This document shows, one piece after another, positions 29,335 to 56,196 of a stretch of DNA of 64,000 nucleotides. The position numbers and the translations under genes are program-made. The notes beneath the pieces were generated by a model that ran no database searches, had not been told where the DNA came from, and was given only the letters and a program-made list of their open reading frames with translations. Numbering within the stretch: position 1 is the first letter of the stretch; every line of letters starts with the position of its first letter. Source of the stretch: a phage; sequence record PZ386974.1; one strand, written 5' to 3'.

Positions 29335-29886
29335 ATGAAACTCTATCATTATTATTTTGACACTAAAGAATTTTACAAAGAAGAAAATTATAAACCATTA
29401 AAAGGCGTAGGATTTCCGGCTCATTCGACACCAAAAAAACCTTTAGACCCTAAAGAAGGCTATGCTGTTATATTTGATGAACGCGAACAAGAATGGGTAT
29501 ATGTTGAAGACCATCGTGGAAAAACGGTATGGACTTATGATAAGCAAAAAATTGTTATTGACACTCCAGGTGCTCTTCAAAATGTTACTACAGAAGAACC
29601 TGGTGAATTTGACATTTGGACCGACGACGGGTGGAAGGAAGATGAAGCATATAAACGTGTAGTTCAACGTGATAAGAAAATTCATGAACTCTATAAATTA
29701 TTCAGTGTTTTAAGTTCTCTTATTGATGCAGAGGTTGCTAATAGAGAAGAAAAACGAAAATTTAAAGAGCTCAAAAAATTCTTTGCCCTTTTAGAAAAAC
29801 ATGAACATCTTGGCGGCGAATTCCCTAAATTCCCTGACCTTGAAAGCAAATCACTTGTTAAACGAATTATAAATATCTTTAAGTAA
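29335..29886 (+). CDS. 38: tail fibre assembly chaperone gp38 (T4-type)
   Basis: 183 aa, same length as T4 gp38 and collinear with it as recalled (MKLYHYYFDTKEFYKEENYKP...). Confidence 0.88.
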   Translation: MKLYHYYFDTKEFYKEENYKPLKGVGFPAHSTPKKPLDPKEGYAVIFDEREQEWVYVEDHRGKTVWTYDKQKIVIDTPGALQNVTTEEPGEFDIWTDDGWKEDEAYKRVVQRDKKIHELYKLFSVLSSLIDAEVANREEKRKFKELKKFFALLEKHEHLGGEFPKFPDLESKSLVKRIINIFK

Positions 29887-29895
29887 GGAGGTATT

Positions 29896-30555
29896 ATGGC
29901 AACACCAAAAGTGTCATTTTCGCCTAGTGATATTCTATTTGGGTTGCTAGATCGTATTTTCAAAGATAACGCTACTGGAAAGGTTTTAATGTCCCGAGTA
30001 GCGGTAATTATTCTTTTGTTCCTAATGGCACTAATATGGTACAAAGGAAGTATTTTGCTGGATTATTATGTAAGAGCTAAGTATGATACTTATACTGAAA
30101 TAATCCAAAAAGAACGAGCTTTACGTTTTGAATCTGCGGCTCTAGAACAACTGCAAATAGTTCATATCTCATCTGGTGCAGATTTTAGTGCTGTGTATTC
30201 TTTCAGACCTAAAAACTTAAATTATTTTGTCGACCTTATAGCTTATGAAGGCAAACTACCTAGCACAATTTCTGAAAAGTCCCTTGGCGGATTCCCGGTG
30301 GATAAAACGGCCAATGAATATATAATTCATTTAAGCGGCCGTCATTTCTCATCTAAATCAGAATTTGCATTTTTGCCTACAAAATCTAAGACTGCCGAAC
30401 TTTCTTATATGTATAGCTGTCCATACTTTAATTTGGATAACATCTATGCTGGAACTGTGACGATGTATTGGTATAAGGGGAATAATATACTTGAGGAGGA
30501 CCGCTTAGCGGCTATATGCAACCAAGCGGTCCGAATACTAGGAAGGGCTAAATAA
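29896..30555 (+). CDS. t: holin T
   Basis: 219 aa; single N-terminal TM helix and large periplasmic domain; matches T4 holin T; SD AAGGAGG upstream. Confidence 0.9.
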   Translation: MATPKVSFSPSDILFGLLDRIFKDNATGKVLMSRVAVIILLFLMALIWYKGSILLDYYVRAKYDTYTEIIQKERALRFESAALEQLQIVHISSGADFSAVYSFRPKNLNYFVDLIAYEGKLPSTISEKSLGGFPVDKTANEYIIHLSGRHFSSKSEFAFLPTKSKTAELSYMYSCPYFNLDNIYAGTVTMYWYKGNNILEEDRLAAICNQAVRILGRAK

Positions 30556-53553: not shown

Positions 53554-53790
53554 TTAACCACTTACTGGTGTAGGGGTAAACATTGCAGCGTTCTTAGTTT
53601 TCCAAGTTGCTGCGTCAGAAACGACATCAGAATAAGCTGCCTTTTCTGACGGAAAGATTTGGTAATGGGAATCTGCAATTCGATGTTCGTTTGAATAAAT
53701 CTCAAACGGTACAGAAACTTCCATACCTTTAACTTCTTTACCTTCACCAGCTGGACGTGTAAAGGTTTTGATATTAACGTAACCACCCAT
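53554..53790 (-). CDS. soc: small outer capsid protein Soc
   Basis: 78 aa; GYVNIKTF...HYQIFPSEKAAYS matches T4 Soc as recalled; late promoter upstream. Confidence 0.8.
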   Translation of the reverse strand: MGGYVNIKTFTRPAGEGKEVKGMEVSVPFEIYSNEHRIADSHYQIFPSEKAAYSDVVSDAATWKTKNAAMFTPTPVSG

Positions 53791-53821: not shown

Positions 53822-53829
53822 TATTTATA
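53822..53829 (-). promoter_or_regulatory. late promoter TATAAATA for soc
   Basis: Exact octamer on minus strand about 32 nt upstream of soc ATG, in the 56-soc intergenic gap. Confidence 0.55.
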
Positions 53830-53835
53830 ACTTAA

Positions 53836-54357
53836 TTAGTAACCATTATCCTGGCGTTCAAAGTTGTGTTGGTTTTTCAAGTAGTAAAGTTTAAAGATTT
53901 CTTCAGCAGTAAGACCAAGACCTTGGAACATATTCAGAACAAAGTGGAGGATATCAATCATTTCAAATTTAATTTCAAGCTGGTCTTCAGGAGACAGTTC
54001 ATCGATACGACGATTTCGATATTCAGCATGTTGTGCCTTCCACGGCTTCCATACACTGCTGGCGGCTTTTTCACCATTGCTCATACCACCAAGTGAAGTC
54101 AGCAGTTCACGAAATTCATCATCAATATAATCTTTCTGATTACGCAGCCAATCAACAACATCACCAGCAGTGGCCAATTCATCAGGATGTTTGTTATGTT
54201 CAGGCTTGTCATTTGCCAGACGAACCTGTAAAGATTTCTGCATATCAAGCATTACCTGCAGTGGGTCTTTATCTTCGTGAATCAGAGCATTAAAATAAGC
54301 TTCTTCTGCTTTATCAACACCAGAAATAAGTTGTGAACATTCGTTAAAGTGTGCCAT
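53836..54357 (-). CDS. 56: dCTP pyrophosphatase gp56 (MazG-like)
   Basis: Track start 54372 is TTG; ATG at 54357 with SD AAGGA gives 173 aa MAHFNECSQL...; matches T4 gp56 as recalled. Confidence 0.85.
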   Translation of the reverse strand: MAHFNECSQLISGVDKAEEAYFNALIHEDKDPLQVMLDMQKSLQVRLANDKPEHNKHPDELATAGDVVDWLRNQKDYIDDEFRELLTSLGGMSNGEKAASSVWKPWKAQHAEYRNRRIDELSPEDQLEIKFEMIDILHFVLNMFQGLGLTAEEIFKLYYLKNQHNFERQDNGY

Positions 54358-54445
54358 TATTTTTCCTTTCAATTCAGTATAAGAGAGTTAATTCTAACAT
54401 TAATTTTATAAAGCGTAATAAATAATAGGTAACTAAGGAGATATT

Positions 54446-54643
54446 ATGTTTAAACTTCCATCGTTAATCAACGCTATTAAAGGCAATAAAAAGAAAACTG
54501 CTATCGCTGCAATAGTTGTAGGTGGCATTATTTCATGGAACTTCGGGATTGCACCATTGTTAGTTGCCCATGGTATTATAGTTCCTTCTGTTCCATTGGA
54601 TACTGTAGTTGATTTGGCCTTTGCTATTATAGGGCTTGTTTAA
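54446..54643 (+). CDS. small membrane protein (65 aa, two predicted TM segments)
   Basis: Plus-strand ORF with strong SD AAGGAG 5 nt before ATG; stop overlaps the gene 61 stop convergently. Confidence 0.5.
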   Translation: MFKLPSLINAIKGNKKKTAIAAIVVGGIISWNFGIAPLLVAHGIIVPSVPLDTVVDLAFAIIGLV

Positions 54644-55662
54644 ATCTTCGAATAACGAGATAATCTCATTTTAGCATGCAACCCACTTGAAATATTCTGT
54701 TTCATATATTCTAAAATTTCTTGTGGTGTTGCATTTTCTTTCATTACCATATCATTCACATCCTTTGATCTCCATGGAGCTCGATCCCAGAACATGACAC
54801 GTTCGCCTGCATCAACTAATCGCTTCATGCGAGCTATAGTATCCGGATGCCTAGGTTCATTATCCATTACCCATACCCGACGCTCTTTAAATGGTACCAC
54901 ATCTAAATCTATTGAGCCGCCTGTAATAGCGATTGCGTTGGGTATGAATAAACTATCAATAGGACCTTCCATTACCCAGACGTCCCCTTCCTTAACACGT
55001 TCAACACCATAAATTTTTGTTGCAGACTCAAACGCTTTAATAGTGATATATTTCTGAGGAGCATCTTTACGAAGTGCACGTCCTTGGAACGACTCTGCCT
55101 TCCCATCTTTATTAAAAATAGGAATCACTAAACGCGGTTCAGGAATCTCTTTCTTATACGTACCCGGTTGAATCTTGTTGACCAATTTAGGCCATTCTAA
55201 TGTGAACCATAATCTGTTCCATGATTCTTTAGGAATGCATCGAGACTTAACATATTTCACAATAGGATGCTCTTCAGGCAGCTTGTCCAGACGAGAACAA
55301 GACGGCAAAGAATTTATAGTCTTTTTCTCCGGTTCTGGTTTATGTTCAGGAACCTTTTCAATCTTTGGTTCCATTCTAGCTTTTTCTTTACGAACTTCCA
55401 TTAGATACTCACGATAAAGCTCTTCATCATACTCTTTTAAGTATCCGGAAATTGTATTGTGGTATTGACAGTTATAGCAATGTACATTACCAGGAGTACC
55501 GCCATAATACCACCCGCGAGCTTTCATTGCATCTGTCTGGGAGTCGCCACAAACTGGACATCGAAACGTTAATTTAAATGTGCTTGAATTATTGATTTGT
55601 CTAAAACGAGGGAGGTGAGAAAACGCACGATAAGCAAATTCATTATCTATCCATTCAGCCAT
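54640..55662 (-). CDS. 61: DNA primase gp61
   Basis: 340 aa; N-terminal zinc ribbon CPVCGDS...CYNC and TOPRIM core; matches T4 gp61; ATG start. Confidence 0.9.
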   Translation of the reverse strand: MAEWIDNEFAYRAFSHLPRFRQINNSSTFKLTFRCPVCGDSQTDAMKARGWYYGGTPGNVHCYNCQYHNTISGYLKEYDEELYREYLMEVRKEKARMEPKIEKVPEHKPEPEKKTINSLPSCSRLDKLPEEHPIVKYVKSRCIPKESWNRLWFTLEWPKLVNKIQPGTYKKEIPEPRLVIPIFNKDGKAESFQGRALRKDAPQKYITIKAFESATKIYGVERVKEGDVWVMEGPIDSLFIPNAIAITGGSIDLDVVPFKERRVWVMDNEPRHPDTIARMKRLVDAGERVMFWDRAPWRSKDVNDMVMKENATPQEILEYMKQNISSGLHAKMRLSRYSKI

Positions 55663-55701: not shown

Positions 55702-56196
55702 TCACAACTTATTAATATTTACTTTAATTCGCTTTCTTTTCTTGGAAGGAATTTGTTCTGGACCTTTATTTACGACTGCACCCGTAGTTGTTCCTGATGC
55801 AATAGCTTGAGGACTGCCGCCTGAATCACCAGCAACCATATCCTCAAATAAAGGGAGTTCTTTAAATATTTCTTTCTGTTGTTCTTCCGTAATGTTATAG
55901 CGTGAAGCTACAGCACTCCAAGCAGACATCATTGATGCCATTCCATTAAGACCTGGAACAGTGCTCATCATTCGCTTCATTGAACGAACTGAAGCATGAA
56001 AAGGTGTATACGCCGCTTTTTCTTCGGGAGTAGAAGGACGTTTAAGAACACTTCCACGTTCATCGATGATTTTGGCTTCGTATGCTTTCCATTCGGTAAA
56101 AGGTTTTTGCATTAGTCGAATAAACTTATATGCATAAACAGAATCTATTGCAGTGTTAATAATACCCATAGGTACCTCCTGAGTATATTTAATCAA
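55702..56196 (-). CDS. hypothetical protein (164 aa)
   Basis: ORF track; 61-proximal ORF of the 41-61 interval. Confidence 0.5.
   Translation of the reverse strand: MIKYTQEVPMGIINTAIDSVYAYKFIRLMQKPFTEWKAYEAKIIDERGSVLKRPSTPEEKAAYTPFHASVRSMKRMMSTVPGLNGMASMMSAWSAVASRYNITEEQQKEIFKELPLFEDMVAGDSGGSPQAIASGTTTGAVVNKGPEQIPSKKRKRIKVNINKL

Follow-up and report, generated by a model that had tools for sequence, protein, structure and literature searches.

A conserved small gene facing primase gene 61 in Tevenvirinae phages, with a probable late promoter and a predicted single-pass membrane product

The closest described relatives of the gene analysed here are T4 Dam.1 (T4T record HM137666, T4Tp032), RB69ORF029w (NC_004928, RB69p029) and the protein family phrog_2024, all of them annotated as "hypothetical protein". 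The T4 homologue has 66 amino acids (NC_000866, 17738..17938). It is named dam.1 in the T4T record and carries no annotation in the T4 RefSeq record NC_000866.4; the homologues of JS98 and PEi20 are likewise missing from the annotation of those phages. Studies keyed to the NC_000866.4 annotation would therefore not have seen the gene. T4 is among the best-studied viruses, yet a gene conserved in every Tevenvirinae genus examined is absent from its RefSeq annotation. The searchable literature gave no mention of dam.1, ORF029w or the protein accessions, and the gene is not mentioned in the CRISPRi-ART and HIDEN-SEQ papers. The gene as such is already known, since hundreds of phage genomes list it as "hypothetical".

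The window, a stretch of 64,000 nucleotides of phage DNA, is of Mosigvirus origin (RB69/HX01-like). Its member of this family was first noticed as a rightward open reading frame (ORF) of 65 amino acids between the leftward genes 56 and 61, and its coordinates and strand were borne out (Table 1). The frame starts with ATG and ends with a TAA stop at 54641..54643, and 88 nt separate its ATG from that of gene 56. All credible neighbouring genes lie on the minus strand, over ~10 kb to either side, in line with the initial observation that the ORF is oriented against all its neighbours. The window ORF shares with its T4 and RB69 relatives the length (65-66 aa), the slot, the orientation towards the primase 3' end, the promoter-like motif and the Shine-Dalgarno sequence. 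In T4, dam lies between the small gene and gene 56, whereas in the window gene 56 is the direct neighbour. We conclude that the small ORF is an ordinary, previously annotated hypothetical gene. That it is a real gene for a late-expressed, single-pass membrane protein has, in our estimate, a probability of about 0.85.

Table 1 Features of the small gene and its surroundings in the window.
Feature	Positions	Strand	Basis
Gene 56 (dCTPase), divergent neighbour	53836..54357	-	72.5% identical to T4 gp56
AATAAATA, T4-type late (gp55) promoter variant, A for T at -13	54417..54424	+	Sequence motif
Predicted late transcription start, leader ~15 nt	54430..54432	+	Usual position of TATAAATA at -13..-6
Shine-Dalgarno AAGGAG, 5-nt spacer to ATG	54435..54440	+	Sequence
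CDS, 65 aa, RB69ORF029w / T4 Dam.1 family, phrog_2024	54446..54643 (stop codon included)	+	ORF list, phrog_2024 match
Residues 1-17, basic N-terminus (net +5), short amphipathic helix	54446..54496	+	AlphaFold2 helix 3/4-11; charge count
Residues 15-41, sole long predicted transmembrane helix	54488..54568	+	AlphaFold2, both runs; Hessa-type sum
Residues 42-65, predicted periplasmic tail	54569..54640	+	AlphaFold2 loop 42-50, helix 51-62
4-nt convergent overlap (TTAA) of small CDS and gene 61 CDS	54640..54643	.	Sequence
Gene 61 (DNA primase), convergent neighbour	54640..55662	-	Annotated DNA primase in near-identical phages

The window protein matched the phrog_2024 profile over residues 1-65 (65-position profile, E = 1.9e-27). 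Homologues were found in 693-699 GenBank phage records, in every case beside the primase gene, and 50 phage records encode the identical protein. Homology to T4 ORFs near oriA, proposed as a check by the first-pass annotation, was indeed found, in the form of the 66-aa T4 protein. The window protein and this T4 copy share 54% identity, a faster divergence than that of the neighbours (74% for gp61, 72.5% for gp56). Within types, dN/dS was 0.10-0.15, and differences between types were distributed over the three codon positions as 32/13/42. Substitutions favour the third codon position, and no frame-breaking indels were found. At the sequence level, these comparisons demonstrate purifying selection on the small ORF.

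Nine Tevenvirinae genera (Mosigvirus, Tequatrovirus, Gaprivervirus, Dhakavirus, Karamvirus, Jiaodavirus, Moonvirus, Kanagawavirus and Gelderlandvirus) have kept the start codon, the slot between gene 56 and the primase 3' end, and a strong ribosome-binding site. The gene points rightward, with gene 56 (or dam) on one side and the 3' end of gene 61 (primase) on the other. It is absent from RB49 and KP15, which fall outside the Tevenvirinae.

The family can be defined by its division into two paralogous subtypes and by a core, WN-P-G-P-[DE], that is invariant. The full motif, W-N-x4-P-x5-G-x3-P-x4-[ED], was present in 97 of 102 distinct family sequences; in these 97, the W, the N, the G and both P residues never vary, and E or D occupies the last position in 95. 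The corresponding residues of the window protein are W31, N32, P37, G43, P47 and D52. The invariant residues persist across identities of 20-50%. The second subtype (B; the JS98 66-aa ORF and the second TH41 gene) occurs alone in Dhakavirus (JS98) and in an A+B tandem in some Gapriverviruses (TH41). It agrees with the window protein in size and in the slot at the primase stop, and the two share the core W-N-x4-P-x5-G-x3-P-x4-E, but it is only ~20% identical overall, has its own N-terminus (MGxxFYQIWKL) and carries an Asp in the transmembrane (TM) helix. In JS98 it is preceded by AATAAATA and a Shine-Dalgarno sequence, as in the window, whereas in TH41 it lies 8 nt after the A copy and has no promoter of its own.

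Subtype B was located by synteny and not by profile. A narrow HMMER profile searched against 1.84 billion cluster representatives returned two clusters only and missed subtype B; on the strength of this exhaustive search, the family has no relatives outside T-even-like phages. A scan of IMG/VR added only seven further close loci. Scans of several family members against Pfam, NCBIfam and PADLOC found no remote homologues, the best hit of a PDB sequence profile search (E = 0.09) was to unrelated TM segments, and a BFVD fold search returned nothing beyond family members.

In T4, early and middle transcription runs leftward only (PMC2988020), and there is no rightward gene near the small ORF, which would therefore need its own promoter. 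The first-pass annotation had placed a near-late-promoter 22 nt upstream. The motif, AATAAATA, was found, although its distance from the ATG is 21 nt. An A at -13 is the commonest accepted variant among listed T4 late promoters, being present in 9 of 50, and the list also includes other single deviations and a TA to AT variant (PMC2988020). AATAAATA is thus an accepted single-deviation variant of TATAAATA, placed so that a short leader would precede the Shine-Dalgarno sequence; the start site given in Table 1 was predicted by applying the established late-promoter geometry (PMC2988020) to the window sequence, and its T4 counterpart would fall at about NC_000866 17722-17725. The strong AAGGAG ribosome-binding site noted at the outset is likewise present. 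A T4 dRNA-seq preprint reports 150 transcription start sites, 22 of them antisense (bioRxiv 10.1101/2024.04.04.588121).

A late-promoter-like motif (A/G/C-ATAAATA or ATTAAATA) was found 12-22 nt upstream of the ATG in all 12 first-in-line orthologues, which represent nine genera. All first-in-line orthologues also have AAGGAGG, AGGAGG or GGAGG, 4-6 nt from the ATG. The motif variants among genera are AATAAATA, GATAAATA, CATAAATA and ATTAAATA, and the perfect TATAAATA occurs in none. The flanking DNA is too diverged to be aligned across the nine genera, and still the promoter variant is kept, which offers a tidy instance of a late promoter below consensus being maintained across genera. The promoter call is weaker for Karamvirus, Moonvirus and Gelderlandvirus, where ATTAAATA has two deviations from the consensus. 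Both strands of the 64-kb window together hold only 18 occurrences of NATAAATA or ATTAAATA, and only three plus-strand sites precede a Shine-Dalgarno sequence and ATG: those of the small ORF, of a tail-fibre-like gene and of holin gene t. VATAAATA is rarer in the window than expected (8 vs 20.5 +/- 4.4), so that such motifs are arguably not neutral there.

With an accepted variant in the window and an equivalent motif in nine genera, the late promoter proposed for the small ORF probably does drive it. This one-off gp55 late-promoter variant of TATAAATA, the only conserved upstream element, would produce a short late mRNA whose leader is ~15 nt long. The promoter is never a perfect consensus and the Shine-Dalgarno sequence is always strong, a combination suggesting that late expression is deliberately modest.

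Two AlphaFold2 runs (pLDDT 80 and 81) predicted helices at residues 3/4-11, 15-41 and 51-62. The initial description of a protein with two TM segments did not hold, as AlphaFold2 and hydropathy point to a single TM helix. The C-terminal helix cannot span the membrane, because it has only 12 residues, and the C-terminal 19-23 residues give a Hessa-type sum of +8.0 kcal/mol (+3 to +16 across the family). The long helix, which holds the invariant W31-N32 (54536..54541) and P37 (54554..54556), is just marginally hydrophobic in the window protein (a crude Hessa-scale sum over the best 19-residue segment gives +2.4 kcal/mol; -2.4 to +3.6 across the family). The N-terminal helix has a hydrophobic moment of 0.38, and the positive-inside rule predicts a cytoplasmic N-terminus. 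In the tail, G43 and P47 are invariant, position 52 is acidic, and residues 51-62 form a predicted 12-residue amphipathic helix (moment 0.43). Two Pro and two Asp lie in this tail, and distant members have Lys, Glu, Gln and His there. Trypsin would leave the whole sequence beyond K17 as a single hydrophobic peptide of 48 residues, which standard tryptic proteomics would overlook.

Hydropathy and charge asymmetry are consistent with the one-TM model of AlphaFold2. The product would be a 65-residue bitopic inner-membrane protein with a basic, cytoplasmic N-terminus. Its TM helix would carry the invariant Trp-Asn, followed by Pro-x5-Gly-x3-Pro, and lead into a 22-residue periplasmic tail that includes a short acidic amphipathic helix. 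Self-association of the TM helix, or its pairing with another membrane protein, is suggested as its mode of action by the buried invariant Asn, to which subtype B adds an Asp. The first proposal, that the ORF really encodes a small membrane protein, is supported by the purifying selection, by the ~700 homologue-bearing records and by the TM helix seen with AlphaFold2 and hydropathy. A conserved phage gene, transcribed late from its own promoter and encoding a bitopic inner-membrane protein, is very probably the best explanation overall.

As to function, our guess is a non-essential late envelope accessory factor that tunes membrane integrity or the action of holin, antiholin or spanin. The exclusion or lysis-timing factor suggested by the first-pass annotation is likewise a guess. 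RB49 and KP15, which do not have the gene, lyse normally. A role specifically in lysis or envelope timing must be considered rather unlikely. The same tentative standing applies to the wider proposal of an overlooked Tevenvirinae late inner-membrane factor in lysis, lysis inhibition or envelope control, whose promoter is kept sub-consensus to hold its dose low. Such a factor could bind holin T, antiholin RI or a spanin via the invariant Trp-Asn helix. If a lysis-timing or envelope role were demonstrated, it would add a new component to a textbook system. Without such a role, the practical value would be small, e.g. the correction of "holin", "DNA packaging ATPase" or missing annotations.

It is unlikely that the protein sets lysis timing directly, as a holin- or pinholin-like hole-former or as an antiholin. 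Like the known holins (T4 holin T, PF11031; class II/III holins and pinholins), it is small and probably expressed from a late promoter, with a single N-in TM domain (AlphaFold2 helix 15-41, hydropathy) and polar residues in the helix. Two homologues are even labelled as such ("holin family protein" for that of EAWsc9, "Holin" for UniProt A0A482MZV5). However, the holin families of Pfam, NCBIfam and PHROG gave no match, which leaves the two labels with no family match behind them in the searched libraries. The C-terminus (…DLAFAIIGLV) is hydrophobic, with a net charge of -2 and no basic residues, unlike the charged cytoplasmic tail that holins usually have. The same window also contains the canonical holin gene t (29896..30555), which has a perfect TATAAATA; the small protein shows no similarity with the phage's own holin T, and its gene adjoins no lysis gene. 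Holin as a family assignment was rejected on the missing profile match, the missing similarity to T and the presence of the true t elsewhere in the window. Sequence, profile and fold comparisons also found no similarity to holin, antiholin, spanin, Imm or defence families.

Small phage membrane proteins often serve in exclusion or counter-defence. That the product serves in the membrane as a late guard, keeping out other phages or countering host abortive-infection systems by superinfection exclusion or counter-defence, is nevertheless a decidedly doubtful reading of this gene. T4 Imm and Sp are likewise small membrane or periplasmic proteins, and in Mosigviruses their genes belong to the same early region, at a distance of a few kb. 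The lineage restriction of the family and its faster divergence relative to the neighbouring genes would also suit a guard. Yet imm and sp lie on the leftward strand, that of early and middle transcription (PMC2988020), and known T4 exclusion genes are early, whereas the small gene is apparently late. The Imm sequence has two hydrophobic stretches. A BLASTP match between the family and Imm (E = 4e-4) spans just 20 residues and was overruled by profile comparison, in which the family profile, aligned to Mosigvirus Imm with hhalign, gave a probability of 0.14% (E = 0.42), i.e. no relationship. PADLOC models returned zero matches at E <= 10.

The stop codons of the small gene and gene 61 do overlap, as first described, sharing the four letters TTAA. 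The same geometry was found in T4, JS98, CkP1, Moon, STML-198, PEi20 and the B copy of TH41, and it is absent in JD18, EAWsc9, CJ20 and Yersinia phage vB_YenM_P8 (YenP8). In JD18 the two genes are separated by a 17-nt spacer with a GC hairpin, in A-only Gapriverviruses by a 118-nt spacer with a strong hairpin, and in YenP8 by an inserted homing-endonuclease gene. Type I toxins (Ldr, PF13940) are comparable in that a tiny hydrophobic protein is encoded by a gene overlapping a convergent one. The convergent partner is an antisense RNA in type I toxins but the protein-coding primase gene here, and the weak Ldr_toxin match (E = 0.1, 1 of 13 members) is far from significant.

Because the stop overlap is common and not universal, the suggested coupling of the small gene to termination of the primase transcript is unsupported. 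A scan of window positions 54000..55200 found no terminator-like site. Single-sequence folds downstream of the stop look stable (z = -3.25 for the window, -2.86 for T4), and RNAalifold gave no consensus structure there. A conserved downstream hairpin or terminator was rejected, with the stem absent in JS98, CkP1, Moon and STML-198, no RNAalifold consensus and a negative terminator scan.

The lack of a terminator-like site means that a late transcript of the small ORF would run antisense into gene 61. The selected function could then lie in the transcript, entering the 3' end of gene 61 and shutting off or processing primase mRNA, an explanation we regard as improbable. The 4-nt overlap is kept in seven of the nine genera and in both paralogue types, and some T4 regions are transcribed on both strands at different times (PMC2988020). 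However, selection acts on the amino-acid sequence, the invariant residues are in the protein, and the strong Shine-Dalgarno sequence is conserved. The genes are also parted by a stable hairpin in JD18 and the A-only Gapriverviruses and by the homing-endonuclease gene in YenP8, and the plus-strand hairpin inside gene 61 is not conserved among genera. The overlap itself can be explained as a frozen arrangement, since shifting either stop alters a protein end.

Residues 1-41 could also be read as a long cleavable signal peptide, from which signal peptidase I would release the 24-residue hydrophobic peptide HGIIVPSVPLDTVVDLAFAIIGLV on the periplasmic side. Ahead of the invariant Gly there is a Pro at -5, an Ala at -3 (88 of 97 sequences) and Ala, Thr or Ser at -1 (96 of 97). 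This pattern, P-x-A-x-(A/S/T), obeys the -3/-1 rule and places a helix breaker where the h- and c-regions meet, and the N-terminus is basic. Cleavage is very improbable all the same: the "h-region" would have ~19-24 residues and include the invariant Trp-Asn, which is unusual for a disposable signal peptide, and the AlphaFold2 helix is unbroken to residue 41. Moreover, the residue at -1 is Thr in 37 of the 97 sequences, and Thr is rare at this position in real signal peptidase I sites.

The reality of the ORF, on which the membrane-protein reading depends, rests decisively on the comparison of sequences. An unexpressed chance frame in a non-coding spacer might be argued from base composition (P ~0.012 for an open frame of 68 codons), from the many antisense ORFs of similar size in the window and from the homologues left unannotated in T4 RefSeq, JS98 and PEi20, but it is effectively refuted by purifying selection and by residues that stay invariant at 20-50% identity, along with ~700 intact copies, the paralogues, and the conservation of Shine-Dalgarno sequence, ATG and promoter motif.

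A small rightward ORF lies between genes 61 and 56, and within ~10 kb on each side of it every credible gene is on the minus strand. The window region shares ~98% identity with many E. coli Mosigviruses, e.g. HX01 and JS09. The first-pass annotation had described the ORF, its strand relative to its neighbours, its ribosome binding site and its stop overlap; this physical description was confirmed in the window with two corrections, one to a motif distance and one to the two-TM statement. The late-type motif, placed there 22 nt upstream of the ATG, was present at a true distance of 21 nt.

Features of the small-ORF region, of the holin locus and of the corresponding slot in other phages (window coordinates unless a record or locus is named)
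Feature	Position	Strand	Remarks
Small ORF	54446..54643	+	ATG start, 65 codons
SD AAGGAG	54435..54440	+	5 nt upstream of small-ORF ATG
AATAAATA late-type motif	54417..54424	+	21 nt upstream of small-ORF ATG
Stop TAA of small ORF	54641..54643	+	TTAA common to gene 61 end
Gene 61, primase	54640..55662	-	convergent; 4-nt overlap with small ORF via TTAA
Gene 56, dCTPase	53836..54357	-	divergent, 88 nt from small ORF
soc, small outer capsid protein	53554..53790	-	Pfam Soc, E=1e-18
Perfect TATAAATA	53829..53822	-	directly downstream of gene 56
Sigma-70-like match (TTGATT, 17 nt, CATAAT)	54443..54471	-	aimed at gene 56; -10 hexamer overlaps small-ORF start codon
Predicted stem + U-rich run	~54676..54735	+ (RNA)	3' end of gene 61; z=-3.25
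155-aa ORF	55702..56169	-	immediately upstream of primase gene
ATTAAATA + AGGAGG + ATG	56167..56193	-	precedes 155-aa ORF
Holin gene t	29896..30555	+	219 aa; Pfam Phage_holin_T, E=4e-92
Perfect TATAAATA before t	29868..29875	+	then AAGGAGG, then ATG
T4 homologue	NC_000866 17738..17938		66 aa
JS98 subtype B ORF	L017 7344..7544		66 aa
TH41 subtypes A and B	L013 2501..2907		tandem, 8 nt apart
PEi20 member	L020 1474..1659		
RB49, gene 56 homologue to primase	L016 1491..3052		14-nt gap
KP15, gene 56 homologue to primase	L024 8541..10110		7-nt gap

The small ORF is a real coding gene, conserved and under selection; its position is fixed, its SD is strong, and its late-type motif and membrane-protein core are conserved. 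The spot had been chosen correctly, and the gene is already in the databases, as 'hypothetical protein' in most Mosigviruses and as RB69ORF029w in RB69. Homologues were found by tblastn in 693-699 phage records, 50 of which encode the identical product. Homology to T4 ORFs, which the first-pass annotation had proposed as a check, was borne out by a T4 homologue with 54% identity, whose SD and 4-nt overlap with the gene 61 stop match those of the window. RefSeq NC_000866.4 leaves this stretch, between dam and 61, without annotation, and the T4T record names the gene dam.1, 'hypothetical protein'. The JS98 and PEi20 members are likewise unannotated. The family, phrog_2024, is listed as function unknown, and no mention of the gene was found in the searchable literature.

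Within types, dN/dS was 0.10-0.15. Codon-position differences between the Mosigvirus and T4 types were ~32/13/42, and the compared homologues had no frame-breaking indels. The small protein diverges faster than its neighbours (window versus T4 identity 54%, compared with 74% in gp61 and 72.5% in gp56), yet constraint on it is clear. A profile search of 5.8 billion proteins gave 94 members, all of 33-69 aa and nearly all of 56-69. Those with names were phage proteins, none informatively named, and many of the 94 came from contigs of ~170 kb, a length typical of T4-like phages. An exhaustive HMMER search revealed no relative outside this T4-like phage group.

An 8-mer one step from TATAAATA was present 12-22 nt upstream of the ATG in 12/12 first-in-line orthologues from nine genera: AATAAATA in the window, JS98 and some Tequatroviruses, GATAAATA in T4, CATAAATA in Gaprivervirus, JD18 and PEi20, and ATTAAATA in CkP1, Moon and STML-198. 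Each motif was followed by AAGGAGG, AGGAGG or GGAGG, and the remaining upstream DNA did not align. Among 50 listed T4 late promoters, 32 are perfect and nine have A at -13, the others carrying single deviations or a TA->AT change; T4 early and middle transcription is all leftward, and late transcripts have either polarity (Geiduschek and Kassavetis, PMC2988020). We infer a gp55-dependent late promoter for the small ORF, with a predicted start near 54430-54432. None of the 12 orthologue promoters has T at -13, where four different states occur, and the SD is uniformly strong, which suggests selection for a weak promoter.

Over the whole window, both strands, VATAAATA, which covers one-off variants of the late promoter, was strongly depleted (8 sites vs 20.5 +/- 4.4 in dinucleotide shuffles) and perfect TATAAATA was at expectation (6 vs 6.7). 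The depletion suggests selection against stray late-promoter-like sequences. On the plus strand, motif, SD and ATG occur together at only two other window sites, a tail-fibre-like gene and holin t. The minus-strand ATTAAATA may be a late promoter also reading leftward into gene 61; the protein of the 155-aa ORF behind it had no Pfam match. Sigma-70-like sites in the small-ORF region numbered 2 vs 3.8 expected, and the match aimed at gene 56 may be due to chance.

Two AlphaFold2 runs on the window protein (8 and 47 sequences, pLDDT 80 and 81) both gave a helix at residues 3/4-11, a long helix at 15-41, a Pro-rich loop at 42-50 and a 12-residue helix at 51-62. By crude Hessa-scale sums across the family, the best 19-residue window of the first hydrophobic segment scored -2.4 to +3.6 kcal/mol and the C-terminal tail +3 to +16 kcal/mol. 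Family-wide, net charge runs from +1 to +6 at the N-terminus, and tails are neutral or acidic, those of distant members containing Lys, Glu, Gln and His; the C-terminal helix has a hydrophobic moment of 0.43. The predicted helices, Hessa-scale sums and charge asymmetry support a model in which the protein is bitopic, N-in/C-out, and its amphipathic C-terminal helix is interfacial. The late expression and membrane location proposed earlier are probably right; the two TM segments are wrong, as the protein is no two-TM hairpin. Of 102 distinct family sequences, 97 contain W-N-x4-P-x5-G-x3-P with invariant W, N, P, G and P, and 95/97 have an acidic residue five positions further on. Ahead of the invariant Gly, a conserved P-x-A-x-(A/S/T) looks like a signal peptidase I site; we consider cleavage unlikely, given the length of the putative h-region and the invariant Trp-Asn within it.

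When the genomic slot of the small ORF was inspected in other genera, a second, paralogous type came to light, subtype B, beside subtype A of the window. The Dhakavirus JS98 ORF is of this type, with AATAAATA, AGGAGG and the primase-stop overlap as in the window. Gaprivervirus TH41 carries both in tandem, the B stop overlapping the primase stop, and other Gapriverviruses kept A with a decayed B remnant. Only a truncated remnant is left downstream of the A copy in EAWsc9 and CJ20, which in CJ20 folds into a highly stable hairpin (dG -35.3 kcal/mol, z=-4.9). YenP8 and DCP80 have an internal B deletion between GTGGAACT direct repeats, and YenP8 has a homing-endonuclease gene between B remnant and primase gene. 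Distant members occupy the same slot in Karamvirus CkP1, Jiaodavirus JD18, Moonvirus Moon, Kanagawavirus PEi20 and Gelderlandvirus STML-198. Outside Tevenvirinae, RB49 (Krischvirus) and KP15 (Slopekvirus) have no small ORF and 56 adjoins 61; given these narrow gaps, the gene looks like an insertion specific to Tevenvirinae at this junction, or a loss elsewhere.

Coupling of the small gene to primase transcript termination through the stop overlap, as suggested in the first-pass annotation, is unsupported. The 4-nt overlap is kept in 7/9 genera and both subtypes without being obligatory: the small gene is separated from primase in JD18 by a 17-nt spacer containing a GC hairpin, in A-only Gapriverviruses by a 118-nt spacer whose hairpin is highly stable (dG -35.3 kcal/mol, z=-4.9), and in a Yersinia phage by a homing-endonuclease gene. 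The stem predicted within gene 61 has a counterpart at the equivalent T4 position (z=-2.86). Conservation does not extend to JS98, CkP1, Moon or STML-198, RNAalifold gave no consensus structure, and the stem probably arises incidentally from the coding sequence. Since this fold is not conserved and the window has no terminator-like site downstream of the small ORF, a late transcript would probably run antisense into gene 61 here. An antisense transcript as the selected function is unsupported, and the protein-level constraint argues otherwise.

Transcription would be late and modest, from the gene's own gp55-type promoter, and the product would be a single-pass N-in/C-out inner-membrane protein whose invariant Trp-Asn helix could mediate association within the membrane. 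Our guess, at a probability of roughly 0.2, is that the protein serves as a non-essential accessory in late events at the envelope, e.g. lysis timing; the exclusion or lysis role proposed earlier is unsupported. The gene is ordinary in kind but, being highly conserved and omitted from the T4 reference annotation, would be worth a small experiment.

The family had no Pfam, NCBIfam or PADLOC matches, and no related solved structure was found. An Imm relationship was rejected, the short pairwise match vanishing in profile comparison. Fold searches matched family members only, one labelled 'Holin', and one GenBank record labels a homologue 'holin family protein'. Kinship to the phage's own canonical holin was rejected, as holin t and the small ORF share no similarity. 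Misnamed members are EAWsc9 ('holin family protein'), UniProt A0A482MZV5 ('Holin') and those of Klebsiella phages VAC36, MY02 and SAKp28 ('DNA packaging ATPase'). Within the window, holin t illustrates a consensus late promoter combined with SD and ATG.
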